Of a stretch of 57,678 nt of DNA, positions 36,703 to 51,676 are shown piece after piece (positions within the stretch are counted from its first letter, which is position 1; the number at the start of each line of letters is the position of its first letter). The stretch comes from Coleofasciculus sp. B1-GNL1-01 (lineage in GTDB: Bacteria; Cyanobacteriota; Cyanobacteriia; Cyanobacteriales; Coleofasciculaceae), in NCBI GenBank assembly GCA_040220235.1, contig JAVJTO010000052.1. One strand, 5' to 3'. A program made the translations under genes and the position numbers. A model generated the notes under the pieces. It was not told the origin of the DNA. It searched no databases and saw only the letters and a program-made list of their open reading frames with translations.

Positions 36703-38346
36703 GTGTCTTACTTAATTTACGATCCCGATACTCCTAATCAAAAAGTTTATACCTTGGAGTCGGGGATTAATACTATCGGGCGTGAAGACGATAACACAAT
36801 TGTCGTACTTCATGGGTATCTCTCTCGTCACCATGCCCAAATTGTTATTTGCTCAGACTCAGACAGTGTCACATTGACGGATCTGCAAAGTCTCAATGGT
36901 ACGTTTGTTAACGAGTGTAAAATTGAGGAATGTCAAATCAAGCATGGGGATTTAATTCGCTTTGGGAGTGTGTTTTTCAAATTTGTGAAAACCCTTCCCT
37001 CTCCTCAACAAAAACCCCTTAATGAGGATACCTCGAATCTTTCGATTCTCCGGCAGGTTGCGCCTGAGAAGACGCGAATCACGATGCGAGAGTTACTGCA
37101 ACCTGATCAAGCAGAACATTCGGTTCTAAAACTCCGCAACCAAGATGCTCATCAGCGATCGGTTAATAAATTGCAAATTTTGCTAGAGGTGAGCAAACAG
37201 CTTTCCTCCCCCGAAGAACCTGACCGACTGATGCAAAAAATCTTGGATCTGTTGTTTGAGATCATGCAGGTGGATCGGGCAGCAATTTTGATGGTTGATG
37301 AACAGACCGGGAAATTGGAACAGAAAGCGGTGAAACTGCAATCGGATTATCAAGATAATACTCAGTTTTACAGCAAACGGATTGCTGATTTTGTTCGCAA
37401 GCAAGGCAACGGTATCTTAACGGATGATGCCCGAATTGACACATTGTTTAATGATTCAGTCTCGATTCTCAAACAAGGAATTCACGCCGCAATGTGTGTT
37501 CCGCTCAAACCGAGAGATACAGTCATCGGTGTTTTGTATGTGGATAATTTATCGATGACGGCTCTCTATTCTGATGAAGATTTGGAGTTCTTAACCTGTC
37601 TGGCAAACCAAGCCGCGATCGCGATCGAGAATTCTCGCCTTTATACCCAGATGGAGGCGGAGGCGGTGATGCGGGATAAACTAGAACGGTTCTTTCCGCG
37701 AACGGTGAGTCGTAAGCTGCGGGAGGAAGGCAATTTAGAAATTGTTGATACGGAAGTAACAGCGCTGTTTGCAGATATTAGTAACTTTACTAAAATGTCC
37801 TCCCAAATGGAACCTCGGCAAATTATTGAAATGCTCAATGAGTATTTTCAGGTGATGGTTGAGGAGATTGTTTTTCCTTATGAAGGCACATTAGAAAAAT
37901 ATATTGGTGATGCATTATTAGCGGTTTGGGGCGCTCCCTATCGCAAACCCGATGATGTCGATTTAGCGGTAAGAGCCGCGATTGATATGCAATGGGCAGT
38001 TCGCCGTTTAAATCAAGTGTGGATTCAAAGCAAAAGACGACCGATTCAAATTCACATCGGCTTAAATACGGGGAAAGTGGCGGCGGGAAATATCGGTTCG
38101 GCAAAACTGATTCAATATGCCACGATTGGTGATACTACGAATGTGACCAGTCGGATTTGTAATTTAGCCAAACCCAATGAAATTTTAATCGCTCAAAGTA
38201 CGTTAGATAAACTCAATGACCGAACTATTCCTGTAGAAAAAATGCCGCCAATGCGAGTGAAGGGGAAAGCTCAACCGTTAGATCTCTATCGAGTTTTATG
38301 GTATAAAATTAATCAGGATAAAGTAATACAAAACGGAGATAAGTAG
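36703..38346 (+). CDS. cyaD: Adenylate cyclase, FHA-GAF-class III catalytic domain
   Basis: FHA motifs IGR..SRHHA..SLNGT; GAF; FADISNFT, EKYIGDA and IGDTTNVTSR. Architecture matches Anabaena CyaD. Confidence 0.85.
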   Translation: MSYLIYDPDTPNQKVYTLESGINTIGREDDNTIVVLHGYLSRHHAQIVICSDSDSVTLTDLQSLNGTFVNECKIEECQIKHGDLIRFGSVFFKFVKTLPSPQQKPLNEDTSNLSILRQVAPEKTRITMRELLQPDQAEHSVLKLRNQDAHQRSVNKLQILLEVSKQLSSPEEPDRLMQKILDLLFEIMQVDRAAILMVDEQTGKLEQKAVKLQSDYQDNTQFYSKRIADFVRKQGNGILTDDARIDTLFNDSVSILKQGIHAAMCVPLKPRDTVIGVLYVDNLSMTALYSDEDLEFLTCLANQAAIAIENSRLYTQMEAEAVMRDKLERFFPRTVSRKLREEGNLEIVDTEVTALFADISNFTKMSSQMEPRQIIEMLNEYFQVMVEEIVFPYEGTLEKYIGDALLAVWGAPYRKPDDVDLAVRAAIDMQWAVRRLNQVWIQSKRRPIQIHIGLNTGKVAAGNIGSAKLIQYATIGDTTNVTSRICNLAKPNEILIAQSTLDKLNDRTIPVEKMPPMRVKGKAQPLDLYRVLWYKINQDKVIQNGDK

Positions 38347-38483
38347 ATAGGGGCTACTGAATAAATGTTGTGGGGAGCAGGGGAAGCTGGGGAAGCAATG
38401 TAGAGACGTGCCATGGCACGTCTGGGAGATGGGGAAGATGGGTAAGCAAATGACGAATAACAAATGACAAATGACGCTTTCCG

Positions 38484-38513
38484 CCGTTAACTTTAATTGT
38501 CCCCACCTACTTA
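38484..38513. repeat. 30-bp dispersed repeat / MITE end
   Basis: CCGTTAACTTTAATTGTCCCCACCTACTTA is identical at 16751-16780. Confidence 0.8.
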
Positions 38514-38517
38514 TTCG

Positions 38518-39858
38518 TTAGAGGTTAAAGTAATTTGTAAAATAATCCTGATATAATTGACAGCTTACCTTGACTTGATTAACATCTAAAGTAATTAATC
38601 CCAGGCTTTTCAACTCAAACATAATCTCTTCGTTTAAAAATGCCGGAGACAACAATATAGTTTTAAAAGATTCCATTAAATCAATATTCTGTTTAATTTT
38701 TCTAGATAAATAGCAAAGGTGCGGCTTAAAAATAGCTTGATAAACAACCGCATTTGAAACCAGCTCTTTCAAAGGTACATGGTGCTGTAAGCTATGATAC
38801 AACGCTAGTCTAACCAAATAAGGATATCCGCCTGTGATCAGCATTAACGGGTGCAATTCAGACGGCGTTAGTTTAAATCCATGCCGTTGAGCTAACTCTT
38901 CGACTTCACGCTGATTAAACGGGGGTAACTCAATTGGCACGCCGATATTAAAGGGAGATTGATTAGCTTGTATGGGAATATAAATATCAGTGGAATGAAC
39001 CAGGATAATTCGCAACTTTTGCCAAATCACTAAATCTTTTCCCTTTTCATGCCAGTGACGCAATAGAACCAGAAAATCACGGGAAAGGCTTTGATGTTCA
39101 AACAGTTGATTAATCTCATCTAATCCAAAAATTAGCGGACTATCAAGATTGTTCAAAATATATTCTTGGAAATAAAGGGTACAACTGACTAATGTGCCAA
39201 CATCTTCATCCCAATACTCATTTAATTTAGAGTCTAATCCTAACTGCCGGGTAACATTCGCACACAGCCAGCGCAAGAATTGATTCGTAGACGCCAATCG
39301 GCTAGTTTCAACTTGGTTTAAACTTAAGCGCACAGTCGCCCAATTCTGGGTTTTTCCGTAAGCAAGAATCCGACTGAGGAGAGACGTTTTGCCCATTTTA
39401 CACGGGGCTTTGATGCGAATCAGTGCAGCTTCCTTGAGAATTTCTTGATAACAGGTTTGTTCAAGGTTATGCCGTTCAATGTACAAAGGAGAGTTGAGCG
39501 GAACTTGTCCTTCTGGAGATTCTGAATGTAACTTCTCTAAACCAGTAGAGAGATACTGGTTTTTAGGAATAGAGGCATTGGGGATTTTTTGTTCGAGGAC
39601 AGCACGGCAATTCGTTCGATTAACTTTTTCTCCTAAAACCTCTGATATTAATTTCCATAGATTTGGCGCAACATGTTGACGAATATATTTTTCGGAATAG
39701 TGATTTTCACGAGCGATTTGTACATAAGTTTTAGGCGTTTCTTTTAAAGACTCTTGCAAGAGAACTTTTTGAATAAAACTAAGCCTTTTCCCAGTTTTTT
39801 GATAAATAAAGTTTTCAGTTTGTTGAATAAGGCTGAGTTTAATAGTCATCGATTTCAA
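38518..39858 (-). CDS. wHTH + AAA_35 (STAND-like) protein
   Basis: N-terminal TYVQIA..LWKLISEVLGEKV wHTH; PEGQVP..YIER, KAPCKMGKT, LDEI, SPFNIG and GGYPYL motifs. Confidence 0.85.
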   Translation of the reverse strand: MKSMTIKLSLIQQTENFIYQKTGKRLSFIQKVLLQESLKETPKTYVQIARENHYSEKYIRQHVAPNLWKLISEVLGEKVNRTNCRAVLEQKIPNASIPKNQYLSTGLEKLHSESPEGQVPLNSPLYIERHNLEQTCYQEILKEAALIRIKAPCKMGKTSLLSRILAYGKTQNWATVRLSLNQVETSRLASTNQFLRWLCANVTRQLGLDSKLNEYWDEDVGTLVSCTLYFQEYILNNLDSPLIFGLDEINQLFEHQSLSRDFLVLLRHWHEKGKDLVIWQKLRIILVHSTDIYIPIQANQSPFNIGVPIELPPFNQREVEELAQRHGFKLTPSELHPLMLITGGYPYLVRLALYHSLQHHVPLKELVSNAVVYQAIFKPHLCYLSRKIKQNIDLMESFKTILLSPAFLNEEIMFELKSLGLITLDVNQVKVSCQLYQDYFTNYFNL

Positions 39859-40768
39859 TATTCAATGCACCTCTTTCAATTAGCCATTGCTTTTGGGTTT
39901 GGCTTAAGCCGATGGCATTGGTAAATAGCGCTCCTTTAACTCGACAACCGGATAAATTTACGGATTGGAGTTGGGTGTCTTTTAAGTTGGCATAACGTAA
40001 ATCGGTATCCACTAACACTGTTTTGTCAAGCACAGCCCCTTCTAAATTTGCTTTAAATAGAGAGGCTCTGCTCAAATCAACATCGCTCAAATCTGTATTT
40101 ACAAGGATAGCTAATTCTAAAGCAACCTGTCGCAAAATTGCCCCGGTTAAGTCAGCATCACTTAAATCGGCTTCAACTAAATCCGCTTCGCTTAAGTCTG
40201 CACCACATAAAATTGTTTTGTGGAGTTGCGCTCCTTCCAAGTCAGTCTGACGCAATGAAGCGTTGGTAAGAATGGCTTCTTCCCAGTTGGTTTGACACAG
40301 CTTCGCCTGATTAAAAATTGCCTCGGTGCCATCAACTCCTTTTAAATTCGCTTGGAACAAATCTGCTCCCCTTAAATCAGCGCGGGTTAAACAAGCGATG
40401 TCTAAGCAACTATTCGTGAGATTGGCGGCGTTTAAGCAAGCTGACTGAAGATTAGCATGATTCAAGCGAGCATTACTGAGGTTGGCTTGGCTTAAGCTGG
40501 CTTCACTGAGATTTGCCCACAGCAAGCTGGCATAAACTAAATTTGCTTGGTCTAAATTACTATTTTTTAAGGTAGCTTGGTTTAAATCGCACCAGATAAA
40601 TTTAGCCCGTTTGAGAATACTTTGATTTAAGTCGGCACAACTGAGATTGGCATAACTAAAGTCAGCACCACTCAGATTGACACCACTTAAGGAAATTTGG
40701 TTAAAGCGAATCGATTGAAAGTTTCTTTCGTGAGTTGCATAACGTTGAAGAATGTCTTTTGCCTTCAT
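39839..40768 (-). CDS. Pentapeptide-repeat protein
   Basis: Continuous A(D/N)Lxx repeats; typical N-terminus MKAKDILQRYA..ERNF at ATG 40768; stop overlaps the next gene. Confidence 0.92.
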   Translation of the reverse strand: MKAKDILQRYATHERNFQSIRFNQISLSGVNLSGADFSYANLSCADLNQSILKRAKFIWCDLNQATLKNSNLDQANLVYASLLWANLSEASLSQANLSNARLNHANLQSACLNAANLTNSCLDIACLTRADLRGADLFQANLKGVDGTEAIFNQAKLCQTNWEEAILTNASLRQTDLEGAQLHKTILCGADLSEADLVEADLSDADLTGAILRQVALELAILVNTDLSDVDLSRASLFKANLEGAVLDKTVLVDTDLRYANLKDTQLQSVNLSGCRVKGALFTNAIGLSQTQKQWLIERGALNIEIDDY

Positions 40769-41064
40769 GTTCCGGATATAGGCTGGGGGATATGAATCAG
40801 TAATCGACAATTATTGCAATATATTACATATTTTCGCCATGAGATCTCTGTTTGGTTAACAAGGTAAGGGATTGAATAGGGGATATGTTTCAGTTCAATT
40901 CTATGACTTATAGGTATTGACTAAGATACCCTATTGTGCATTATTAGGATTTGAGCCAAAAATTCTCTATTCAAGATCTGAACTTTAGGGACTATATTTC
41001 TCAACTCTAAGCTGTAATACTAAGACCATTGCCAATGTTGCTTTGACAGATAAGGTTTTAGACT

Positions 41065-41337
41065 ATGAGTGAGCAAAATTCCAAAGGTTCAGGTCATATT
41101 GTTCCCCTGGAATCTCTCAGCTTTGATAGCTTTGGACGTAATCCGGCGACCGATATTGTTTGTGTGACTCCAGTTCGCACTGTGGTTCGACGCGAAGAGG
41201 AAATTGTGCTGATTCGCAAAGTAAGAAAGGTAGAAGAAATCGATGCGAGTCCGGCTTGCCCAATCAATACCACTCAAATGGCTCAAGTTCAACAAGAGGG
41301 CGAAGTAGTCTTTGAGGAACAACAAGTAGAATCGTAA
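41065..41337 (+). CDS. 90-aa protein consisting mainly of a two-Cys 54-aa module shared with the 637-aa protein
   Basis: The module is conserved at protein level with synonymous divergence against 44632-44793, which strongly supports coding status. Confidence 0.9.
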   Translation: MSEQNSKGSGHIVPLESLSFDSFGRNPATDIVCVTPVRTVVRREEEIVLIRKVRKVEEIDASPACPINTTQMAQVQQEGEVVFEEQQVES

Positions 41338-41348
41338 TTCATCTAATG

Positions 41349-41379
41349 AGCCAGATAGGCTGACTGGGTTTATCTGGCT
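41349..41379 (+). terminator. Intergenic stem-loop after the 90-aa gene
   Basis: AGCCAGATA / TATCTGGCT 9-bp stem followed by TCGTTT. Confidence 0.55.
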
Positions 41380-41413
41380 TCGTTTACGTTACAGCGGTTT
41401 GCAACTCAATGAA

Positions 41414-41731
41414 ATGGCAACTAAGCAGAATTTTTCGAGTTTCCAAGATTTAATTCAGAATTCTCCTACGCCGATTTTAGTCAGCTTCTATGCAACCTGG
41501 TGTGGATACTGTAAAATGATGGCTCCCATTTTAGAGCAGGTGAAGACGTCAATGGGAGATCGCATCAAAGTGGTGAAAATAAACACCGAGAAATACCCCA
41601 AACTAGCCTCTAAGTATGAGATTCAGTCGTTGCCGACTTCAATTTTATTTATCGAAGGTGAACAAGCCAGTCGCATCAAGGGAGTGATGCAAACGCCAAA
41701 ACTGATTGAATATTTAACAAAATTCCTTTAA
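41414..41731 (+). CDS. Thioredoxin (y-type-like) with WCGYC active site
   Basis: FYATWCGYC, VVKIN and IQSLPT motifs; ATG 41414. Confidence 0.92.
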   Translation: MATKQNFSSFQDLIQNSPTPILVSFYATWCGYCKMMAPILEQVKTSMGDRIKVVKINTEKYPKLASKYEIQSLPTSILFIEGEQASRIKGVMQTPKLIEYLTKFL

Positions 41732-41744
41732 ACTCTAAAATTGA

Positions 41745-42815
41745 TTGGGACTGTATTCCAGAATCAATGGGGGTTGTACATTGAAGCGTCTTGCCAAAAT
41801 CCTTAAATCAATCGGCGTTGTTTTCGGTTTTATCGTCAGCAGTTTTGGACTAATGATAATTTTAGGCTTAATTTTACCTGCTGTTTTGGAATACAAGCGA
41901 AATCTGGCGATTAATTATAATCGACAAGCCGAAACGCTTTATCAGGCAAGACAGTACGAACAGGCAATTGAGATTTACAACAAAGCGATTCAAGCTTATC
42001 CAAATTTGGCGTTGTCCTACTACAATCGTGGCAATTGCTTTTTTGCCTTAAATGACTATCAAGAAGTCTTGCAAAACTATAATGATGCGCTGAAACTGAA
42101 TTCTAGCTATCCACAAGCCTATAATAACCGGGGAAATACGTACTATTTACTAGGGGATTATCATCAAGCGATCGCGGATTATACGCAAGCGATTAAATGT
42201 AATCCTAAGTATGAGCGGGCTTACTATAATCGCGGGAATGCTTACTATAATTTAAGCGAGTATCAACAAGCGCGGTTAGACTTTAGTCATGCCATTCAAC
42301 TCAATCCTGATTATGCTGAAAGTTATAATAATTTAGGGAATACCTATATAGCCTTAAATCAATATCAACAAGCGATTGACAGCTACGATAAAGCGATCGC
42401 GATCAATCCTAACTATGCTCAAGCCTATAATAATCGCGGCAATAGCTACTACTATTTAAATAACGTCGTGCAAGCCATTAGCAACTATGCCAAAGCCATT
42501 ACGCTGGATAGTCAAAATCATGAAGCATATAATAATCGCGGCAATGCTTACTATGCCCTACAAAAATATAAAGAAGCACTCAAGAATTACGACCAAGCTT
42601 TAACCCTTTGTCCGAATCATATTGAATCCTATTATAATCGCGGCTTAGTTCAGATTAAACTGAAGCAAAAACAAAAGGCGATCGCGGACTTGCAGAAAGC
42701 GGTTCAGTTGGCGCAGCAGCAGGAGAATCAGCTAGTGCTGGAGGTGATTAAAGACGCCATTGAGAAACTGCAAATGAATCAAGAGATTCCCAATGTTTTA
42801 CCCAGTCAAAGCTAA
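41745..42815 (+). CDS. Membrane-anchored TPR protein (start possibly TTG 41781)
   Basis: N-terminal hydrophobic helix, then about 8 AYNNRGNAYY-type TPRs. Confidence 0.9.
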   Translation: MGLYSRINGGCTLKRLAKILKSIGVVFGFIVSSFGLMIILGLILPAVLEYKRNLAINYNRQAETLYQARQYEQAIEIYNKAIQAYPNLALSYYNRGNCFFALNDYQEVLQNYNDALKLNSSYPQAYNNRGNTYYLLGDYHQAIADYTQAIKCNPKYERAYYNRGNAYYNLSEYQQARLDFSHAIQLNPDYAESYNNLGNTYIALNQYQQAIDSYDKAIAINPNYAQAYNNRGNSYYYLNNVVQAISNYAKAITLDSQNHEAYNNRGNAYYALQKYKEALKNYDQALTLCPNHIESYYNRGLVQIKLKQKQKAIADLQKAVQLAQQQENQLVLEVIKDAIEKLQMNQEIPNVLPSQS

Positions 42816-42906
42816 GGTGTAGAGACGTGCCATGGCGCGTCTGTAGGGGCGGATTTCACTAAACCCGCCCCTTGAGTGTTTAGATTAAAGAGAGTAGGAG
42901 AGGAAA

Positions 42907-44820
42907 ATGAATTTATCCAAAACATCTGGCGAAGATCTAACACCCGGAACCGTCTATCTTCAGGATTATCAATCGGATCAACCCAGTAATCTGTATACCT
43001 TAGACTTAGTGACAGGGAACACCAAATTAATTGGTGCGATCGCCACCTCCGTAACCGATATTGCTTTTGTCGATTCCCAGCTTTATGGACTCGATCAAAC
43101 TGATGATGGTCAAACCACATTATTCCTCAATATTAACCCCACCACTGGGGAAGCCACAGTGATTGGTGATATTGGCTTTGCGGTTGCCGGTTTAGCCTAT
43201 CACCACCAGCGCCAGACTCTCTATGCTAGCAGTGCCAAACAATTAATTTCCATTAATCCCGCCACCGGAAAAGGGACACCCGTGGTAACCATTAAGGATC
43301 GAGAACGCAACTGTGGTGAAGTCACTTTTGCGGCTGATGGCATCGCTTATATTACCCTAATTGGTTATGACCACCAGAAATTCTTAGCCACCTGTGATCT
43401 CGATACAGGTTCAGTCAATCTTATTGGCAATACTGGCTTCCCTGATCTTGGCAGTATGGACTTTATTGGTGATACTCTTTATGGCGTTACGGGTAATTTC
43501 TTTAATTTAGGTAAAGATGGTCAACTCATCCGTATTAATCCTCAAACAGGTACAGGAACCTTAGTCACCATGACTGAACCGAGAGGGCGTTGGGCAGGAC
43601 TTACGGTTTATCAACCTGTGACCCAATCAACCCCTCAACCAACCACACCGACAACTACGATTACTCCGGAGAAATCCATGACTCTATTAACCATTGATAC
43701 CCAAGACCATTGCTATATTATTGACCAAGGTGCTATGGAACACCTACAGTCTAATGTGGCAAACTCAATTCGCTTAGACCAAGGAACGTATACCATAAAA
43801 ATTGCTAGTGGTCGCTACAGTTACGCTGAGGATAAAGAGCAAGGCGAACCCTTTGTCTTACTCTGGATCTATGGTATAGATGGCAGTACGTTTGTTAATA
43901 AAAACACGGGCTTTGAAACTGGGGCAACGTGGACAACATTGAATGGCTATGATGACCCCTTAAGTTTAGAGGTCAAAGATAAAGCGGTTGTTTGTGCCTT
44001 ATTCTTTGATATCAATAAAACCGATAACAGTGGCTTAATTACCCTATCCATTGCAGACAAAAAATCGACGACAACGCCTCAAACCCTAACCGTTGATAGT
44101 AAAACCAATTGTCATTTATTGAATCCGGACTACTTGAGGAGTCTCCAGCAATGGCAGACCAACTATATTGATCTAGAACCGGGAACTTATAAAGTGACTA
44201 TTCGCGAAGGAAATGCCCAGTATTGGTCAGGAGAACAAAAGTTTAAATTAGAACCTTGGGCGATCCTTTGGGTCAAAGGGGGCAAATTCATTACTAAACT
44301 CACAGGTATTGAAGTTGAACAAAGCTGGCTGTCGCTGAATGGGTATGAGGATTTTATCCCTCTTGAGGTCAAAGAAAAGACAACGATTTGCGGATTATTC
44401 TTCGATACCTACAAAGAGGATAACCAAGGACAAGTTGTTTTAGCCATTGAACCCGTTAGCGTTACTCACTTAATCGAAGAAAAAGAAAAAGTGAAAAATA
44501 AGGTGATGTCTGATTCCGATTCATCACCAGAAACCCCGTCAGATCAATCGGGTAAAAAGGTTGAAGCTGAAGTTGATTACTCTTACCGTAGCCAACGCCC
44601 TGGTTCTGTCAGTGTAGGAAATTTAGCCACATTAAGTTTTGACAGTTTCGGACGTGATCCGGCGAGAGATATTGTCTGTGTTACTCCGGTTCGTACTGTA
44701 GTTCGACGGGAGGAAGAAATCACAATTATTCGCAAAGTCAGGAAGGTTGAAGAGGTTGATGCGAGTCCGGCTTGTCCTGTGAATACCACTCAAGTTTCCA
44801 GAGAAACAGTCGGCGAATAA
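42907..44820 (+). CDS. Multidomain protein: beta-propeller, Pro/Thr linker, two tandem beta-sandwich (LecA-like by inference) domains, C-terminal two-Cys module
   Basis: Repeated L..I(N/D)P.TG blades; duplicated about 125-aa domain with EP..LW, LNGY.D and FFD...DN.G; GGAG/GAGG SD. Confidence 0.85.
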   Translation: MNLSKTSGEDLTPGTVYLQDYQSDQPSNLYTLDLVTGNTKLIGAIATSVTDIAFVDSQLYGLDQTDDGQTTLFLNINPTTGEATVIGDIGFAVAGLAYHHQRQTLYASSAKQLISINPATGKGTPVVTIKDRERNCGEVTFAADGIAYITLIGYDHQKFLATCDLDTGSVNLIGNTGFPDLGSMDFIGDTLYGVTGNFFNLGKDGQLIRINPQTGTGTLVTMTEPRGRWAGLTVYQPVTQSTPQPTTPTTTITPEKSMTLLTIDTQDHCYIIDQGAMEHLQSNVANSIRLDQGTYTIKIASGRYSYAEDKEQGEPFVLLWIYGIDGSTFVNKNTGFETGATWTTLNGYDDPLSLEVKDKAVVCALFFDINKTDNSGLITLSIADKKSTTTPQTLTVDSKTNCHLLNPDYLRSLQQWQTNYIDLEPGTYKVTIREGNAQYWSGEQKFKLEPWAILWVKGGKFITKLTGIEVEQSWLSLNGYEDFIPLEVKEKTTICGLFFDTYKEDNQGQVVLAIEPVSVTHLIEEKEKVKNKVMSDSDSSPETPSDQSGKKVEAEVDYSYRSQRPGSVSVGNLATLSFDSFGRDPARDIVCVTPVRTVVRREEEITIIRKVRKVEEVDASPACPVNTTQVSRETVGE

Positions 44821-44860
44821 AATAATGAATGATGTTAGAATAAACGGCAATTAACAGGAT

Positions 44861-45060
44861 GTAGGGGCGACCCGCTGCATCAATGAACAATACTTATCCA
44901 CTCAATTGACTCGGGTCGCCCTATCTTTACCCATCGGTAACAGTTGGGGCGACTCGCTGCATCAATAAACAATCCCCATCCACTCAATAAACTCGGGTCG
45001 CCTCATTTTCACCCCTCAGTAATAGATAATGTGTATTGCCGTTTATGCAAAAACAACATG
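44861..45060 (+). repeat. Two tandem 82-bp GTAG hairpin units plus leader; third copy at 46258-46375
   Basis: Stem GGGCGACCCG / CGGGTCGCCC with conserved loop CTGCATCAAT..AACAA..TCCA.TCAAT. Confidence 0.88.
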
Positions 45061-46236
45061 TCACGTCAACCTCAACCCTCAGCAACTCATCGCCAACCCA
45101 ATTCAATTATTCCTCTAGAAATTGAATCCCTCGATGAATTTGACCAGTATCTTAAAGACAAACAAAGTCTTGCCAATGTTGTTTTTCAAAGCTTGGATTT
45201 AACGGCATATTCTGAAATATTAAAAAAATACGACTTAACCAATACCGTCTTTTTAGGCTGTCGTCTGACACCCGATACTCTAACCTATATTTTAAACACA
45301 GGTGGCTTAGTCTTTCCACCCTTAACCTATGTTCCATACAATGCTTATCGTAATCGTCTTTATTCTCCCGATGAATTAATGGGAGAGTATCAAGTTGGAG
45401 TAACAGGAAGCTATCAGAATACTCTGGATGGTCGAATTTATAACCATTATGTCAAACAGGGCAAAGATCACCCCCCTAGTATTCTAGAAACCCTCGCCCA
45501 ACGGTTACATGATCATGCGATTACCGATGCTTTAGAAGAACTGATTGATGGGCGAAACGTTGTGGCAATTATGGGTGGACATTCCCTGAAACGGAGTGAT
45601 CCCAACTATATAAAAGTGGCGCGAATTTCTGGAGAATTGACCCGTCGCGGCTATTTAATGACCAGTGGTGGCGGACCCGGTGCCATGGAAGCCACCCATT
45701 TAGGTGCATGGTTTGCCTATCGTTCCCAGGCGGAATTAGAAGATGCGGTGGAGATTCTGGCGACTGCACCGATTTATAAACCGATGGAACAATGGTTAGA
45801 TACGGCGTTTGCGGTGAAACAAAAATACCCACTTCAAGATAAAAATGGGCAATATCCAGAGAGTTTAGGCATTCCCACCTGGTTATATGGTCATGAACCG
45901 CCCACCATTTTCGCCACCCACATTGCCAAACTCTTTGCCAATAGTATCCGGGAAGAAGGGTTACTCGCGATCGCCAAATATGGGGTAATCTATTCTCCAG
46001 GGAGTGCCGGAACCATTCAAGAAATCTTCCAAGACGCTTGTCAGAACCATTACAACTCCTTTGGTGTGGTGAGTCCGATGATTTTCTTAGGCGAAGATTA
46101 CTGGAAATGTAAAAAACCCGTGTTTCCGTTATTGGCGCAATTAGCGGCGGGGAGAGAATACAGTTCACTGTTGGCGATTACCGATTCCGTAGATGAGGTG
46201 ATTCAACAAATTGAACAATTTGCCGCCACATTATAA
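45058..46236 (+). CDS. LOG/SLOG-family nucleotide-binding protein
   Basis: VAIMGG, TSGGGPGAMEA and PGSAGTIQE (PGGxGTxxE-like) motifs; ATG 45058 (the longer ORF runs through the repeat). Confidence 0.85.
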   Translation: MSRQPQPSATHRQPNSIIPLEIESLDEFDQYLKDKQSLANVVFQSLDLTAYSEILKKYDLTNTVFLGCRLTPDTLTYILNTGGLVFPPLTYVPYNAYRNRLYSPDELMGEYQVGVTGSYQNTLDGRIYNHYVKQGKDHPPSILETLAQRLHDHAITDALEELIDGRNVVAIMGGHSLKRSDPNYIKVARISGELTRRGYLMTSGGGPGAMEATHLGAWFAYRSQAELEDAVEILATAPIYKPMEQWLDTAFAVKQKYPLQDKNGQYPESLGIPTWLYGHEPPTIFATHIAKLFANSIREEGLLAIAKYGVIYSPGSAGTIQEIFQDACQNHYNSFGVVSPMIFLGEDYWKCKKPVFPLLAQLAAGREYSSLLAITDSVDEVIQQIEQFAATL

Positions 46237-46257
46237 CTAATTTTGTGTTCAAGATCG

Positions 46258-46375
46258 GTAGGGGCGACCCGCTGCATCAATTAACAACACTCGTCCATTC
46301 AATTAACTCGGGTCGCCCTATCTCCACTTTCGGTAACAGAGACTATTTCTTTGCCGTTTATTCAAAAACAACATG
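46258..46375 (+). repeat. Third copy of the hairpin-leader unit
   Basis: Matches 44943-45060, including TTGCCGTTTAT.CAAAAACAACATG. Confidence 0.88.
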
Positions 46376-48025
46376 ACCAATTCAACCCATTCCATTCCGC
46401 CCGTCGATTTAGTCATCGTCATCGACACCAGTCCCTCAATGCGAGATGAAGCCCAAGCCCTAAGTCAAGCCGCCGCTGCTGCAATTAAAGCCGCCAGTTC
46501 TAGCTGTCCGTCCGATTTACGAACTGAATGGTTTGGCATCGAAGGGACTTGGAAAAATACCAATTTTAGCCGCCGAATTCGCGACTATCTAATCCAAGAG
46601 TGCAACGCGCCGGAAACTGAAATTCGGGCAAGAAAACGGGGGGAACTCAAAGATGCAGGCGCCCAAGAAGACGCCGCCCGTACCATTGAAGATATTGCCA
46701 ATCACTTTAACTGGCGCGAGGATGCAGCGAGGGCAATCTTTTACCTAGGGGATGAAGCCTTAGAAGCCGGAGGTTCTCAAACCACCCAAGAGGATATTGA
46801 CGCCGCTAATCGCGCCATATCCCAGGCAAAAACTGCCAATATCACGATTCACACGTATTTAGGTAAGTCGAAGAGTAAACATCGAGACAGTATTCAAAGC
46901 GAATATGCCAGAGTCGCCTCAGAAACTGGGGGACAAGCCTTTACTGACCAAGACACCCTCAAAGGCTTTGAAGATGTTCTAGAAAAAGTCATTTGTGGCA
47001 GTTGTGCATCGCAACCAGAAACACCCTCAAAACGTCCAATTCGCCAGAAAACACTGAACATTGGCACATTCAACCTTTATAATCTGGTTCTGCCCAATGT
47101 CACCTATTACGACACCAATAAATATAGCCCAGAACTTTATCAGCGCAAAAAAACCTGGATTGCCCGTCAAATCGAACAAATGGATGCCGATATTATCGGG
47201 TTCCAGGAACTGTTTCACGAGGAAGCCTTGCGGGAAATCCTCACCGAAACCCCAGACTGTGCCAATGCTAATCTAATTACCGCCAATCCCACCGGGGACA
47301 AACCAACTGTCGCGTTGCTGTCGAAAGTTCCGGTTCTCAACCACCAAATCTTCACCGAATTCCCCGAAAAGGCACGTCTAGACATGGAAGGGACAGCCAT
47401 TCCTCTGCATAGCTTTTCCCGTCCCCTGTTATCGGTGGATCTTGCCTTAAGTGATACGGTTGAATGTACTGTATTTGTGGCTCATCTTAAGTCTAAACGC
47501 CCTATCATACCTGAAGATGCCGATCGCAGTGACCCCGTGGAAAAAGCCAAGGGACAAGCCCGGGCGCTACTGCGTCGGGCGGCTGAAGCTACCGCCTTAC
47601 GGGTGATTCTCATGGAAACGCTGCAAAACCGCAAACGTCCAGTAATCGTAATCGGGGATTTAAATGATAGCGGTTTAGCCGTAACCAGTAAAATTATCTC
47701 CGGTGAACCCCCTTGGGAAAAACTAAGATTTGCCCAAAAGCAGGAAATCTGGGACGTACTGCTTTATAGTGTCAAGGACATTCAGGCGCGTCAGAGTTAC
47801 GGTGATTTCTACTACACCCATATTTACAACGGGTACTACGAGAGTTTGGATCATATTCTCGTGAGTGAAGAATTGGTGGCACAAAATCCGGATCGCATTG
47901 GTAAGGTGACGTATGTTTCTGTCTATAACGATCATCTCATCGATGAAACCTTGAGTTACGAAGACATGGAAAAATGGAAGTCGGATCACGGACAAGTCGT
48001 TGCCTCGATTCGACTGGAATCTTAA
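46373..48025 (+). CDS. vWA domain fused to an endonuclease/exonuclease/phosphatase (EEP) domain
   Basis: MIDAS motif DLVIVIDTSPSM; EEP motifs TFNLYN, DIIGFQE, HLKS, GDLND, LDHI and SDH. Confidence 0.88.
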   Translation: MTNSTHSIPPVDLVIVIDTSPSMRDEAQALSQAAAAAIKAASSSCPSDLRTEWFGIEGTWKNTNFSRRIRDYLIQECNAPETEIRARKRGELKDAGAQEDAARTIEDIANHFNWREDAARAIFYLGDEALEAGGSQTTQEDIDAANRAISQAKTANITIHTYLGKSKSKHRDSIQSEYARVASETGGQAFTDQDTLKGFEDVLEKVICGSCASQPETPSKRPIRQKTLNIGTFNLYNLVLPNVTYYDTNKYSPELYQRKKTWIARQIEQMDADIIGFQELFHEEALREILTETPDCANANLITANPTGDKPTVALLSKVPVLNHQIFTEFPEKARLDMEGTAIPLHSFSRPLLSVDLALSDTVECTVFVAHLKSKRPIIPEDADRSDPVEKAKGQARALLRRAAEATALRVILMETLQNRKRPVIVIGDLNDSGLAVTSKIISGEPPWEKLRFAQKQEIWDVLLYSVKDIQARQSYGDFYYTHIYNGYYESLDHILVSEELVAQNPDRIGKVTYVSVYNDHLIDETLSYEDMEKWKSDHGQVVASIRLES

Positions 48026-48330
48026 GCCAATCTTTAATTTGATTGACAAAAAGACGGTAAATCGGTTGACTCGTTCTCAGAGTAAACGAACGCCGTCCAG
48101 TCTTCGTTTAGGCTTCATGGTTATAGCGCTACGCGCTAGGCAATAGGCAATAGGTAACGTGAAACGTATTACCCGGTCAGATTTGTAGGGTGGGCAAGGC
48201 TTATAAGCCGTGAAATCCTAATATTATCGTTCCTTGTTCTTGCCCACCTCACAGTAACGTGAAACCTATTACCAGTACAGCAAGATATGAGTTGACGATT
48301 TACCCTTTATTCACGTTCAGGAGAAAAATT

Positions 48331-50040
48331 ATGACGACTCAATCCCCCCTCTCATCACAACGACGGGTTGGCATTATTCCCGCCTTAAAAGCCGATCGCC
48401 AATCTAACACATGGCACACGGTTAAATTTGATCCCCCGTTTCCTCAGGATACCCAAGTCGCCGTTATCCCGATGACGCAAACCTATAACGGACCCGAAAC
48501 CCCAGGGTTAAGACTTCGCAATGTTACCCCAGAAGGATTCGAGATTCGCTTCGATGAAATTGTCGCCCGGGGACGTTCGGCGGATGGGGCGCATCTGGAT
48601 GAAGCTGTCGCCTGGATTGCCTATCCTGTATCTACCCAAGAGGATGATACGCCAGGAACACCAGGAGTCCCTACCTTTCCCCCCGAATCTCTTGATATAA
48701 CCACCGATACAATTTATCAGCTACTGTGGGAACACGATGAAAATCAATTCTCAGTGAGTCCCCGCAACAGTTCAGGGGACTGGGAAAACCCAGACGCTGA
48801 TATTTTATTAGATGAACAGGTAAAAGCAGCAGGTCAACGCGAAATTGATTTAGCCACTCATCCTCTCTTCTATAAAGTAAATGAAGCGAAACTATTTGAC
48901 AACGATCGCACCTATTCCAGCTTTATACAACTTTTAGATAACTATGCCATTCGTGTGGCTGAACCCGAAAAGACGGTCGAGGAAGAAGTCCAAGAACAGC
49001 AAGCGTTTTTAGCAAAAATCATTAACACCAAGCCTATGCAGCTTGCCCGGACTTATATCAATCAAAACTTGGGCGAAAGTCTTTCGGAAGAAGAATTCCG
49101 CACCAATCTACAGCGGATCTGGTTTGAACTTTATACGAATCACTATGGCGGCAAATCGACTGAGTTTGCCTCTGGCTTTGAACATGTATTTGTCGGCGAA
49201 GGTAAATTTGATATCCATTCGGGAAGTAAAAAAGAAAACTTTGGCAAAATTTCCGGTTATCACTCATGGGTGAAGTTTTACCTGGATGAAAAGAATCAGC
49301 GGGTCAATTATTTAGGCTACAAGTATGACTTAAAAGGAGAGAATGGTTCCCAAAATCCCAATGTTGTCACCTTGCAGATGACCAAGAAAGTAATTGATAT
49401 GCAAGGAAACGTAATTGCCAAACTGTTTAAACCCAAAGGCGGCTTCTTCGTTGGTCCGAGTCCCGAATGTGAAATGGCAATGGCAACGGTTGCCTATTAC
49501 GAAAGTGTTCATGGCAAAATTACGGACAAGCGCCGGATTACCATTAATGACGCTACCTATAATTTAGTCTTGTATCGCAGCACGAATCCCAATGGCAGTC
49601 GTGGTGAATTCATTCGTTCCTTTTTTCCCATTTTCTTGGCAATGGATGATGGCGAAACACCGGACACTGATGAACCTGTTGTTGAGCCGATTGATGAAGT
49701 GACAAACAACAATGGTGATGTGGTCATTTTCGCCACCCAACCCAACCCAGAAGGCAGTGATGAAGGGAATGAGTGGGTTGAGTTAAAGAATACCACCAGT
49801 AATCCGATTGATTTATCGGGTTGGAAACTGCAAGATAAGTTAGACCGTCCAGAAGATATTAGTGGCACGCTGCAACCGCAGGAAGTCAAGCGATTTACCA
49901 TTTCGCGAGCTAATTATACGACTATGCAATTGGGGAACAGTTCGGGTATTATTGCCTTAATTGATTCTGCTGGAAATGAGGTAGCCATGGTTAGTTATGG
50001 TTCCGCTAGTTCGGGTGAAGTGATTCGGTTTGTGTCCTAA
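48331..50040 (+). CDS. Lectin-like N-terminal domain + EndoU/XendoU endoribonuclease + lamin-tail domain
   Basis: SGFEHVFVGE, GYHSWVKFY and KPKGGFFVGPSPECEMA (EndoU); NPEGSD..EWVELKN..DLSGWKL (LTD); AGGAG SD before ATG 48331. Confidence 0.85.
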   Translation: MTTQSPLSSQRRVGIIPALKADRQSNTWHTVKFDPPFPQDTQVAVIPMTQTYNGPETPGLRLRNVTPEGFEIRFDEIVARGRSADGAHLDEAVAWIAYPVSTQEDDTPGTPGVPTFPPESLDITTDTIYQLLWEHDENQFSVSPRNSSGDWENPDADILLDEQVKAAGQREIDLATHPLFYKVNEAKLFDNDRTYSSFIQLLDNYAIRVAEPEKTVEEEVQEQQAFLAKIINTKPMQLARTYINQNLGESLSEEEFRTNLQRIWFELYTNHYGGKSTEFASGFEHVFVGEGKFDIHSGSKKENFGKISGYHSWVKFYLDEKNQRVNYLGYKYDLKGENGSQNPNVVTLQMTKKVIDMQGNVIAKLFKPKGGFFVGPSPECEMAMATVAYYESVHGKITDKRRITINDATYNLVLYRSTNPNGSRGEFIRSFFPIFLAMDDGETPDTDEPVVEPIDEVTNNNGDVVIFATQPNPEGSDEGNEWVELKNTTSNPIDLSGWKLQDKLDRPEDISGTLQPQEVKRFTISRANYTTMQLGNSSGIIALIDSAGNEVAMVSYGSASSGEVIRFVS

Positions 50041-50073: not shown

Positions 50074-50151
50074 TTCAACTTAAGCTAAAAAATTTCCAAT
50101 ACCTTGAGATAAACCCCTCCCTAACCCTCCCCTTGCCAAGGGGAGGGAACC
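50074..50151. repeat. Partial copy of the 9569-9755 MITE including the CCCTCCCCTTGCCAAGGGGAGGG hairpin
   Basis: TCAACTTAAGCTA..CAATACCTTGAG..CCCTCCCTAACCCTCCCCTTGCCAAGGGGAGGGAAC is shared with about 9577-9653. Confidence 0.75.
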
Positions 50152-50203
50152 AGGAGAAAACTAATTCTTCCATTATCCGCTGTAAAAAAAAGAGAGGTTC
50201 CAC

Positions 50204-51676
50204 ATGTCAATCAACGGCACAATGATGCAATATTTCCACTGGTATATTGATCCCAATCTGATCCTGTGGAATGACGTTAAAACCAAGGCGCAAGAATTAG
50301 CCGATGCGGGATTCACCGCGTTATGGCTACCTCCCGCCTACAAGGGAATGGGAGGAACGTATGATGTCGGCTACGCCGTGTACGATATGTATGATCTGGG
50401 GGAATTTGATCAACATGGTACTGTTCGCACTAAATACGGCACTCTTGAGCAATATTTAGCCGCAATCAACGCCTTACACGCATCAGGAATACAAGTTTAT
50501 GGGGATACTGTCTTAAATCATCGCATGGGAGGTGAAGGGACAGAAATTGCCCGCGCTACTCCCTTTAATGAATATGATCGGCTGCATCCTAAAGGATGGA
50601 CAAGGGATATTAAAGCCTACACCCATTTTAAGTTTCCGGGTCGTCAGGGCAAGTATTCTAATTTTGAATGGCATTGGTGGCATTTTGATGCTGTTGATTA
50701 CGACGATTACACCAAGGAACCCAATACGCTTTATCTCTTTGAGGGGAAAGTCTTTGATGATTATGTGGCATTAGAAAAAGGAAACTTTGCCTATTTAATG
50801 GGATGTGATCTGGATTTCCAGAGTCAAGAGGTGCGCGATGAAGTGACTCGTTGGGGTAAATGGTATCTGGATACCACAGGCGCTGATGGTTTCCGTCTGG
50901 ATGCGATTAAACATATTTCATCCTGGTTTTTCCCGCAATGGTTAGATGAGATGCGGTATCATGCGGGCAAAGATTTGTTTGTGGTGGGTGAATATTGGTA
51001 CAACAATATTGACACCTTACATTGGTATATCAACGCCGTTAATGGCAAAATGTCGGTATTTGATGTGCCACTCCACTACAATTTCTATTACGCCAGTCGT
51101 TCTGGTGGACATTATGACATGGGGAGTATTCTCAATGGCACTTTGATGCAGCAACGTCCCACCCATGCGGTTACATTTGTAGAAAACCATGATTCCCAAC
51201 CGTTACAGTCATTAGAAGCGCCAGTAGAACCCTGGTTTAAGCCCTTAGCTTACGCGATCATTTTATTGCGCCGCGAGGGGTATCCTTGTGTCTTTTATGC
51301 CGATTATTACGGTACAGAATATGAGGATTACGGCAAAGATGGCAATCGGTACAAGATTTTTCTTCCCTCTCACCGTTGGATTATTGACAAATTACTCTAT
51401 GCTCGGAAACAGTATGCTTATGGGGATCAATACGATTACTTTGATCACTACAATACAATTGGTTGGACGCGCTTAGGGGATCACGCTCATCCGAAAGCCA
51501 TGGCGGTGATTATGAGTGATAGTGTGCCAGGTTACAAGTGGATGGAAGTGGGTAAACCGAATGCCAAGTTCTATGATTTAACCGAACATATAAAAGAACC
51601 CATTTATACCAATGAATGGGGATGGGCAGAATTTCGGTGTAACGGCGGTTCTGTTTCCGTTTGGGTTCAAGAATAA
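50204..51676 (+). CDS. amyA: Cytoplasmic alpha-amylase, GH13 (subfamily 5-like)
   Basis: NGTMMQYFHWY, GFRLDAIKH, GEYW and FVENHD motifs. Confidence 0.93.
   Translation: MSINGTMMQYFHWYIDPNLILWNDVKTKAQELADAGFTALWLPPAYKGMGGTYDVGYAVYDMYDLGEFDQHGTVRTKYGTLEQYLAAINALHASGIQVYGDTVLNHRMGGEGTEIARATPFNEYDRLHPKGWTRDIKAYTHFKFPGRQGKYSNFEWHWWHFDAVDYDDYTKEPNTLYLFEGKVFDDYVALEKGNFAYLMGCDLDFQSQEVRDEVTRWGKWYLDTTGADGFRLDAIKHISSWFFPQWLDEMRYHAGKDLFVVGEYWYNNIDTLHWYINAVNGKMSVFDVPLHYNFYYASRSGGHYDMGSILNGTLMQQRPTHAVTFVENHDSQPLQSLEAPVEPWFKPLAYAIILLRREGYPCVFYADYYGTEYEDYGKDGNRYKIFLPSHRWIIDKLLYARKQYAYGDQYDYFDHYNTIGWTRLGDHAHPKAMAVIMSDSVPGYKWMEVGKPNAKFYDLTEHIKEPIYTNEWGWAEFRCNGGSVSVWVQE

Follow-up and report, generated by a model that had tools for sequence, protein, structure and literature searches.

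The window analysed here is a stretch of 57,678 nucleotides from Coleofasciculus sp. B1-GNL1-01 (contig JAVJTO010000052.1), and our subject is a gene cluster within it that encodes two copies of a short module with two cysteines (the Cys module). The genome that holds the window (G000, 8.66 Mb) has Coleofasciculus records as its closest named relatives (94-96%). L-, P- and G-numbers denote loci, proteins and genomes compared. Nine open reading frames (ORFs), as in the original prediction, are found at the expected positions, seven on the plus strand (41065-50040) and two on the minus strand (38518-40810). Searches against Pfam, NCBIfam and PDB upheld the domain calls for AAA_35, pentapeptide, thioredoxin, TPR, propeller, LOG/SLOG, EEP, XendoU and LTD. 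The features are:

38518-39858, minus strand: AAA_35 STAND-like ATPase, likely regulator and recurring partner (Pfam PF14516, E 9e-127)
39839-40810, minus strand: pentapeptide-repeat protein, recurring partner (Pfam)
41065-41337, plus strand: stand-alone Cys-module protein of 90 aa (core at 41161-41262), predicted major scaffold subunit
41348-41380, plus strand: 14-bp hairpin directly 3' of the stand-alone gene (folding compared with shuffles)
41399-41731, plus strand: dedicated thioredoxin (WCGYC) with no signal peptide evident, core partner (Pfam, NCBIfam)
41745-42815, plus strand: membrane-anchored TPR protein, core partner and predicted tether (Pfam, hydrophobic N-terminus)
42907-44820, plus strand: 637-aa protein with a five-bladed propeller, two JR domains and a C-terminal Cys module (44677-44778), predicted cargo subunit
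44861-45060, plus strand: intergenic repeats and a 25-nt leader which is duplicated before the vWA-EEP gene (46258-46375)
45058-46236, plus strand: LOG/SLOG protein, genus-restricted passenger (weak in Pfam; PDB LOG/PpnN matches)
46373-48025, plus strand: vWA-EEP fusion, with vWA a head of the system elsewhere and EEP a part-time associate
48331-50040, plus strand: EndoU-LTD protein with an N-terminal domain that has no Pfam match, passenger (XendoU and LTD profiles)
50204-51676, plus strand: alpha-amylase of the AmyA type, beyond the range of the original prediction (Pfam, NCBIfam)

The divergent minus-strand pair had been described as AT-rich, but it is only mildly so (GC 0.385-0.399 against 0.405-0.472 in the plus-strand cluster). 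The soluble members had been said to lack obvious signal peptides, which holds for the thioredoxin, while the TPR protein does have an N-terminal hydrophobic anchor. The AAA_35 protein presumably has an N-terminal wHTH, although no profile matched one. For the SLOG gene the start was set to the ATG at 45058, since the start given by the ORF finder (44944) falls within an intergenic repeat; the EndoU gene probably starts at 48331.

A two-cysteine module, free and as a tag

The core of the system is a two-cysteine module, found both on its own as a small protein and fused as a tag to binding domains that can be exchanged for one another. It spans 34 residues (Cys-x31-Cys) and both cysteines are invariant. 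Over 93 rows of the alignment, 12 positions show no variation (C33, P36, R38, E44, E45, R51, R54, K55, E57, A61, C65 and P66). The two window copies, which had been noticed before any database search, proved to be real: 159 nt are 81% identical, and the 34 codons show 14 synonymous and 3 non-synonymous differences. Together with the invariant positions and the greater likeness of copies within a locus (see below), this speaks for constraint. No match to the 90-aa protein was found in Pfam, NCBIfam, PADLOC, PHROG or PDB sequences. The family is compact, with 110 short homologues of similar length and 159 longer ones, and 1.84 billion representatives yielded 58 matches and no distant relatives. 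Two borderline matches (P0259, P0260) turned out to be unrelated repeats. The distribution is patchy (8 of 401 genomes of the order and, in another sample drawn from the whole class, 9 of 401), and the carriers with names belong mostly to filamentous genera.

Long proteins carry the module at either terminus, mostly behind low-complexity linkers of the Pro/Thr type. With one exception, which has TPRs, all of the 120 long module proteins carry vWA, propeller, JR, LecA-like or PA14/fibro-slime domains, which are non-catalytic and which we call heads, and a nuclease or NTPase is fused to the module in none of them. The free form exists in one to three tandem copies, and module clusters usually begin with these, followed by the tagged genes. 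In some loci (L069:4976-5843, L062:13515-13742) certain free copies end at a stop codon in the very position where others encode Gln, which results in short and long forms; in the L069 tandem the short forms precede the long ones.

The hairpin that follows the free gene in the window has a z-score of -3.9, and none of 200 shuffles was as stable. Hairpins of -15 kcal/mol or below occur after 8 of 16 last stand-alone genes, compared to 32 of 106 other genes. Together, hairpin and tandem free copies would favour an excess of the small protein. The monomer model of the 90-aa protein was poor (pLDDT 58, pTM 0.18) and was not used, the module is not resolved in the model of the 637-aa protein, and a search of the structure Atlas with the module gave no usable match. 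When the module was scanned for charge complementarity that would indicate a self-pairing strand, no clear register emerged.

Neighbourhoods were compared for 30 module loci. This set excludes L001, L002 and L081 (same genus), L077 (duplicate), and L064, L066-L068, L075 and L076 (short, near-duplicate or spurious); five genomes supply more than one locus and many loci are truncated. A TPR gene was found in 11 of them, a thioredoxin gene in 11 and an EEP gene in four, while SLOG and EndoU occur once each, namely in the window. In a second set of 52 loci with a relative of the 637-aa protein, vWA was nearby in 24, AAA_35 in 11, pentapeptide repeats (>=50%) in six, the module in five, thioredoxin in five, EEP in three, and SLOG and EndoU in two each, both of which belong to the genus of the window. 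Thus the proposal of an undescribed multi-gene system, for which conservation of the neighbourhood had been suggested as a check, holds for Cys-module proteins, thioredoxin, TPR and AAA_35/pentapeptide proteins, which recur together across loci, but SLOG and EndoU are not part of the core.

Despite the many paralogues in G000, the window genes are the best G000 matches of the neighbouring TPR proteins (7 of 7 tested), thioredoxins (6 of 6), pentapeptide proteins (3 of 3) and AAA_35 proteins (4 of 7). The partners are orthologous and not random TPR or thioredoxin genes. The AAA_35 genes that map to that of the window are from L007, L010, L025 and L078, the pentapeptide genes from L010, L025 and L078.

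One might consider that the module is a docking or sorting tag which is read by a single partner (TPR protein, thioredoxin or a protease) and does not form a polymer, with the free protein acting as competitor or buffer. A near-identical short sequence at either terminus and the co-occurrence of a dedicated TPR protein and thioredoxin would fit such a tag, and TPRs commonly bind peptides. However, each of these partners is not found nearby in 19 of the 30 module loci, and free copies in tandem, up to three of them, are a more usual feature of structural subunits, so that we regard a docking tag as quite improbable.

Other genes were noticed in individual clusters. A gene with a Kunitz/BPTI domain directly follows two module clusters (L070:12823-13350, L062:8313-8921), and genes which by eye resemble a JAB/E2/E1 ubiquitin-like set follow fibro-slime-module genes (L075:4698-7917, L080:2256-4517). 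DUF2235-like genes lie within two module clusters (L039:12854-13900, L078:1720-2754).

Binding heads, probable membrane placement and a possible glucan link

In the model of the 637-aa protein, the propeller and the two JR domains, which are beta-sandwiches, reach a pLDDT of about 90. Pfam describes the propeller as DUF4394/DUF6923, and the closest structure is the five-bladed 2h2n (Z 18.3, rmsd 3.5, 221 aligned); fold searches in PDB and viral libraries yielded propellers only. JR has no CBM20 or CBM48 match. The 'lectin' labels of the original prediction are unproven, JR having no Pfam or PDB match and the EndoU N-terminus none in Pfam. For JR, the cluster at rank 10 of an Atlas search has 17% PA-IL members (score 0.90). 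Profile comparison of JR with the LecA-like head gave a probability of 2%, and another alignment covered only the common module. JR matches were obtained in 35 of 301 genomes of the class with a search profile that also contained the module.

The vWA domain is weak in Pfam, but the window copy has a MIDAS-like DTSPS motif. Besides the window, there are about 20 loci where vWA is fused to or adjoins the propeller-JR gene. Elsewhere it precedes propeller, JR, module or tail (see below), while in this genus EEP is C-terminal to it, in the position where vWA-MoxR ternary systems have an effector domain. The same type of vWA is also found in tandem pairs without the module (P0266, P0312, P0356), in one case with an OmpA-like domain. 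Relatives carry a PA14 head (E 9e-10) or a LecA-like head. The latter matched Pfam PA-IL with E 0.004-0.03, below the gathering score, in three of six cases tested, and compared to PllA it gave E 0.59; an ND-x-DN calcium motif is present in 22 of 22 LecA-like heads. Across families, conservation of the heads is about 45-65%.

A sister design exists which has the same heads on a different tail. In 43 of 53 loci the heads are followed by a long helical repeat rich in Asn and Gln, and then by a C-terminal domain in which two cysteines are conserved. This tail was considered as a relative of the module, but the profile probability is only 0.1% and the candidate was dropped. Some tail-type loci encode a membrane protein in which this tail lies on the side with positive charge. 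One set of heads is thus shared by two unrelated tails, each of which comes with membrane-anchored partners, and this argues for a display scaffold. Tail-type proteins of the vWA-propeller-JR-JR type are found among L004-L052 (e.g. L010:9287-13888, L005:15471-16928, L008:13196-14902). Beside some tail-type genes (L005:17723-20859, L011, L025, L038), genes for a DUF2235 (Tle1-like) hydrolase, a haem peroxidase, a catalase-like protein and a lipase recur, which we take to be an oxylipin-like set.

The N-terminus is not hydrophobic in 229 of 230 module proteins, and the single segment that was flagged is the module itself. In the loci fetched, JR is mostly the C-terminal domain of proteins with a signal peptide, a PBP domain, a transmembrane segment (TM) and DUF4912. 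The vWA-JR combination ends PBP-TM-TPR proteins, and L122 and L127 carry it in the position of JR. A clear Trp/Leu membrane segment was found in 20 of 26 such PBP-TM proteins, the picks in the other six being Ala-rich stretches that were set aside, and 19 of the 20 have more Lys/Arg on the C-terminal side. This charge distribution would place JR, and vWA in the fusions that carry it, in the cytoplasm. In L038, TM-TPR is fused to propeller-JR-JR. A widespread pair (L113-L114, L120-L142) consists of a stand-alone 130-aa JR gene and a gene for a signal peptide-PBP-TM-DUF4912-JR protein; in G000, the PBP and DUF4912 matches are on C108. DUF4912 is scarcely mentioned in the literature searched.

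These observations bear on the idea that the proteins form an adhesin fibre of the surface or sheath, exported without a leader, cross-linked by disulfides and using calcium-dependent lectin heads for the cohesion of mats. PA14 heads, LecA-like heads with their calcium motif, and Pro/Thr linkers are what one would look for in such a fibre, and LecA has no signal peptide either. However, signal peptides are missing, no secretion gene was seen to recur in the neighbourhoods, JR and vWA-JR are found behind a membrane segment in the slot of a phosphorylase, and the partner oxidoreductase is a leaderless thioredoxin. We consider an adhesin fibre distinctly unlikely.

The phosphorylase just mentioned provides a lead towards glucans. 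There are PBP-TM proteins of this architecture which have a glycogen phosphorylase domain instead of vWA-JR. A lysine, which we take to be the pyridoxal phosphate site, is missing in all five anchored copies that cover the motif and is kept in four of four ordinary copies; a sixth anchored copy is split and degenerate. Judged by these residues, the anchored phosphorylase-like proteins are probable pseudoenzymes. The five are encoded at L113:11262-15737, L130:10515-14345, L136:2675-7630, L142:9441-13394 and L145:9453-12482; four of them are located behind a PstS-like PBP, and basic residues are also lost. An intact glgP gene often adjoins the anchored copies.

Genes of alpha-glucan metabolism occur within 6 kb of a module locus in seven of 30 cases (6 of 17 where JR is present, 1 of 13 where it is not) and of a PBP-JR locus in seven of 25, compared to about 4% for random positions in G000. 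The positives span three enzyme classes. For the module loci they are an amylase (window, L039, L063), a GH13 enzyme of the neopullulanase type (L116), a degenerate phosphorylase (L145, L147) and a GH13 enzyme at a distance of about 5 kb (L148).

A proposed display scaffold and its relation to known systems

With a probability of about 0.4, we propose that several filamentous cyanobacteria have a thiol-controlled, membrane-tethered scaffold which displays binding heads and for which glycogen would be the likeliest client; the proposal is drawn from sequence comparison. Free and fused modules would interact homotypically and, with the free form in excess, would build an oligomer or polymer that is decorated with heads. 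As the fusions suggest, assembly would take place in the cytoplasm at the inner face of the membrane, with the membrane-anchored TPR protein as predicted tether. The thioredoxin may control assembly by way of the invariant cysteine pair, whose thiol state it would set, and the divergently encoded AAA_35 protein may regulate the cluster. In the weakest step of the proposal, versions with JR would position alpha-glucan granules, or the enzymes acting on them, at the membrane.

A number of observations weigh against this scaffold. For only 12 of 24 fused modules is the nearest free copy encoded in the same locus, and a strong hairpin is present in only 8 of 16 loci. The TPR and thioredoxin genes are each found in just 11 of the 30, partly truncated, module loci, and CxxC is absent from two of six neighbouring thioredoxins checked. 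Four of nine genomes from the genus (G481, G494, G620, G647; the last with a contig break at this region) lack the AAA_35, pentapeptide, 90-aa, thioredoxin and 637-aa genes, yet their TPR gene is intact, so that the TPR protein has a function apart from the module and is perhaps not the tether. JR has neither a Pfam nor a PDB sequence match; in view of this lack of a known relative, it is only a candidate sugar binder. Heads of the PA14/fibro-slime and LecA-like types are commonly seen in surface proteins. Furthermore, no alpha-glucan gene lies within 6 kb at any of 44 tail-type loci nor at 23 of the 30 module loci, and the background value was taken from one genome (G000). As the positive loci are kin, the glucan link is a lead from perhaps three to four independent events and not a statistic.

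In a more far-reaching version, the module would form a redox-switched plug-in polymer that assembles at the membrane and presents exchangeable binding heads. It would belong to a wider apparatus (periplasmic PstS-like domain, membrane span, dead glycogen phosphorylase and JR) by which glycogen granules would be held at the membrane and linked to signals from outside. This joint claim we consider doubtful.

The original prediction had also offered an immunity or cell-death module. In such a signalosome the Cys module would be an effector-associated adaptor or an amyloid signalling motif, the lectin-like heads would detect an invader, and downstream action would come from the AAA_35 protein or from nucleases that are recruited (EEP, EndoU, SLOG). 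The patchy spread and the mostly filamentous carriers are consistent with this, as is the closer resemblance among module copies from one locus (0.88) compared to copies from different loci (0.81-0.83), a property which effector-associated domains (EADs) also have (PMC8195603, section 5). Intracellular lectin-fold sensors have precedent in conflict systems according to the same paper. Nucleases have accumulated at the window locus, and there are a TIR-TRADD-N protein that ends in a degenerate module (P0255) and a TPR protein that ends in a module (P0208). However, the TIR fusion has lost both cysteines, the partners of the module are binding domains and not effectors, with neither effector enzyme nor NTPase among the 120 long module proteins, and the only two module copies in G000 leave the AAA_35 protein without one. 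The conservation of the heads across families and the failure of SLOG and EndoU to accompany the module across genomes also speak against it. Concerning catalogued anti-phage systems, PADLOC (2023) matched no system: the seven plus-strand genes gave only generic TPR matches, and AAA_35 gave a match with E 0.006. We therefore regard a signalosome as unlikely.

The comparison with described systems points to the same distinction. As far as their accessible parts go, the EAD principle and the vWA-MoxR ternary systems (PMC7159879, PMC8195603) share with our loci a small non-catalytic module that is common to neighbouring genes and has a patchy spread, and also vWA, propeller, TPR, pentapeptide and STAND-like parts. 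In contrast to the vWA-MoxR systems, no MoxR and no VMAP/iSTAND protein was seen, AAA_35 being the sole ATPase among the 11 window proteins scanned. Unlike an EAD, the Cys module is attached to binding heads rather than to effectors or an NTPase, occurs alone in tandem, and has two invariant cysteines and a dedicated thioredoxin. The pairing of an effector copy with a copy on an NTPase or third component, which marks EADs, was found in none of the 120 proteins; among the 58 matches there is one degenerate TIR fusion.

Bacterial amyloid signalling sequences (BASS; 10.1101/2020.01.06.895854, accessible part) are likewise short, beta-prone motifs in two neighbouring genes of filamentous cyanobacteria. 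They are shorter, at about 25 aa, and occur as a pair, one at the N-terminus of an NLR and the other at the C-terminus of a Bell domain protein. In our case the ATPase is without the motif and no match to a Bell domain was obtained. The module has at least 34 aa, is charge-rich and capped by cysteines, and an NLR-plus-Bell architecture does not occur among the long module proteins. The coiled-coil-rich proteins Fm7001 and All4981 (10.1101/674176) are also candidates for intracellular self-assembly and include a TPR member, and the tail-type sister proteins resemble such filament proteins in being long and helical. The Cys module, however, is short and not a coiled coil, and it is set apart by description, no link to vWA, cysteines or glycogen having been found in the part of that source available to us.

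A description of the module was not found in the literature searched, which included the accessible parts of PMC7159879, PMC8195603 and 10.1101/674176 and the supplements of two papers, with subscription papers and bioRxiv supplements outside the search. Even without the glycogen step, the libraries searched contain no family that is matched by the module, by JR or by the sister system with the helical tail. Within the reach of these libraries, the module-based system would be of a new kind, with a putative function.

In eukaryotes, STBD1 and PTST are targeting scaffolds for glycogen and starch, which are non-catalytic and combine a glucan-binding head with a membrane anchor or coiled coil. 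We use them as a working analogy for the glycogen step that implies no homology; in the proposed scaffold, the anchor and the heads would be different subunits which a common tag holds together. The wider apparatus considered above, if it exists, would represent a bacterial counterpart of these scaffolds. The proposal bears on how cyanobacteria position their glycogen granules and on what their many leaderless lectin-like proteins do. The 90-aa protein, the tag, the thioredoxin, the anchor and, in sister loci, the membrane-bound pseudo-phosphorylases make up a testable list of parts, and a short, fusable, thiol-controlled assembly tag, if it exists, would be useful as an engineering part.

Nucleotide enzymes and other neighbours

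The plus-strand cluster of the window ends with three enzymes which, by profile and motif, are ordinary members of the LOG/PpnN, EEP and XendoU families; only the vWA-EEP fusion is unusual. The SLOG/LOG profile is weak (Pfam E 0.004; PDB LOG/PpnN matches with E 5e-8 to 4e-4), while EEP (E 9e-13), XendoU (E 1e-62) and LTD (E 5e-16) are clear. Motifs of the catalytic type are intact in all three: the SLOG fold has GGGPG and PGxxGTxxE as in LOG, and the EndoU protein has kept two catalytic His and the Lys region.

It had been suggested that the three enzymes form a scaffolded pathway from RNA to nucleotide to nucleobase. They are adjacent and co-oriented with intact motifs, and EEP occurs in four of the 30 module loci, but none of the three carries the module. 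At E<=1e-30, SLOG is confined to 3 of 201 genomes of the order, all from one genus, and is found in none of five other genomes that bear the module. EndoU is widespread elsewhere and adjoins the module only in this genus; in G172 it is broken and lacks this linkage. From strain to strain the enzymes are kept or lost independently of one another: among the four genomes that lack the module genes, three have kept SLOG (broken in G620) and two have kept vWA-EEP and EndoU. As SLOG and EndoU are rarely co-located with the module and are kept where module genes are absent, the pathway is contradicted as a conserved function, and we consider it very improbable.

EEP is a part-time associate that probably joined the system in one lineage. 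Most EEP homologues are stand-alone proteins of about 330 aa, and stand-alone EEP genes are located inside the module clusters L045, L062 and L070. The vWA-EEP fusion is found in this genus, and a version with degenerate vWA in Limnospira/Arthrospira.

The enzyme block is a locally shuffled addition, given the gain and loss between strains, the repeats between the genes and a 25-nt leader that SLOG shares with vWA-EEP and that has two copies in G000. SLOG and EndoU are local passengers, as seen from their occurrence across genomes. Among contigs from public sequencing runs, one skips vWA-EEP and another positions 38308-41699; the single run labelled as RNA has long contigs, which may be DNA. 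The intergenic repeats of the window have 271, 120 and 76 matches in G000, the figure of 120 belonging to that at 44861-45060, and the flanking genes are gained or lost between strains. These repeats, which occur between genes throughout the genome, are located at 38399-38424, 42818-42843, 44861-45024, 46258-46339 and about 50113-50170.

Promoter-like sites number 35 compared to 28.1 expected, a figure which we did not use. Next to the cluster, a gene for an FHA-GAF-adenylate/guanylate cyclase (36703-38346) is convergent on the AAA_35 gene; its matches to PycC reflect generic cyclase similarity.

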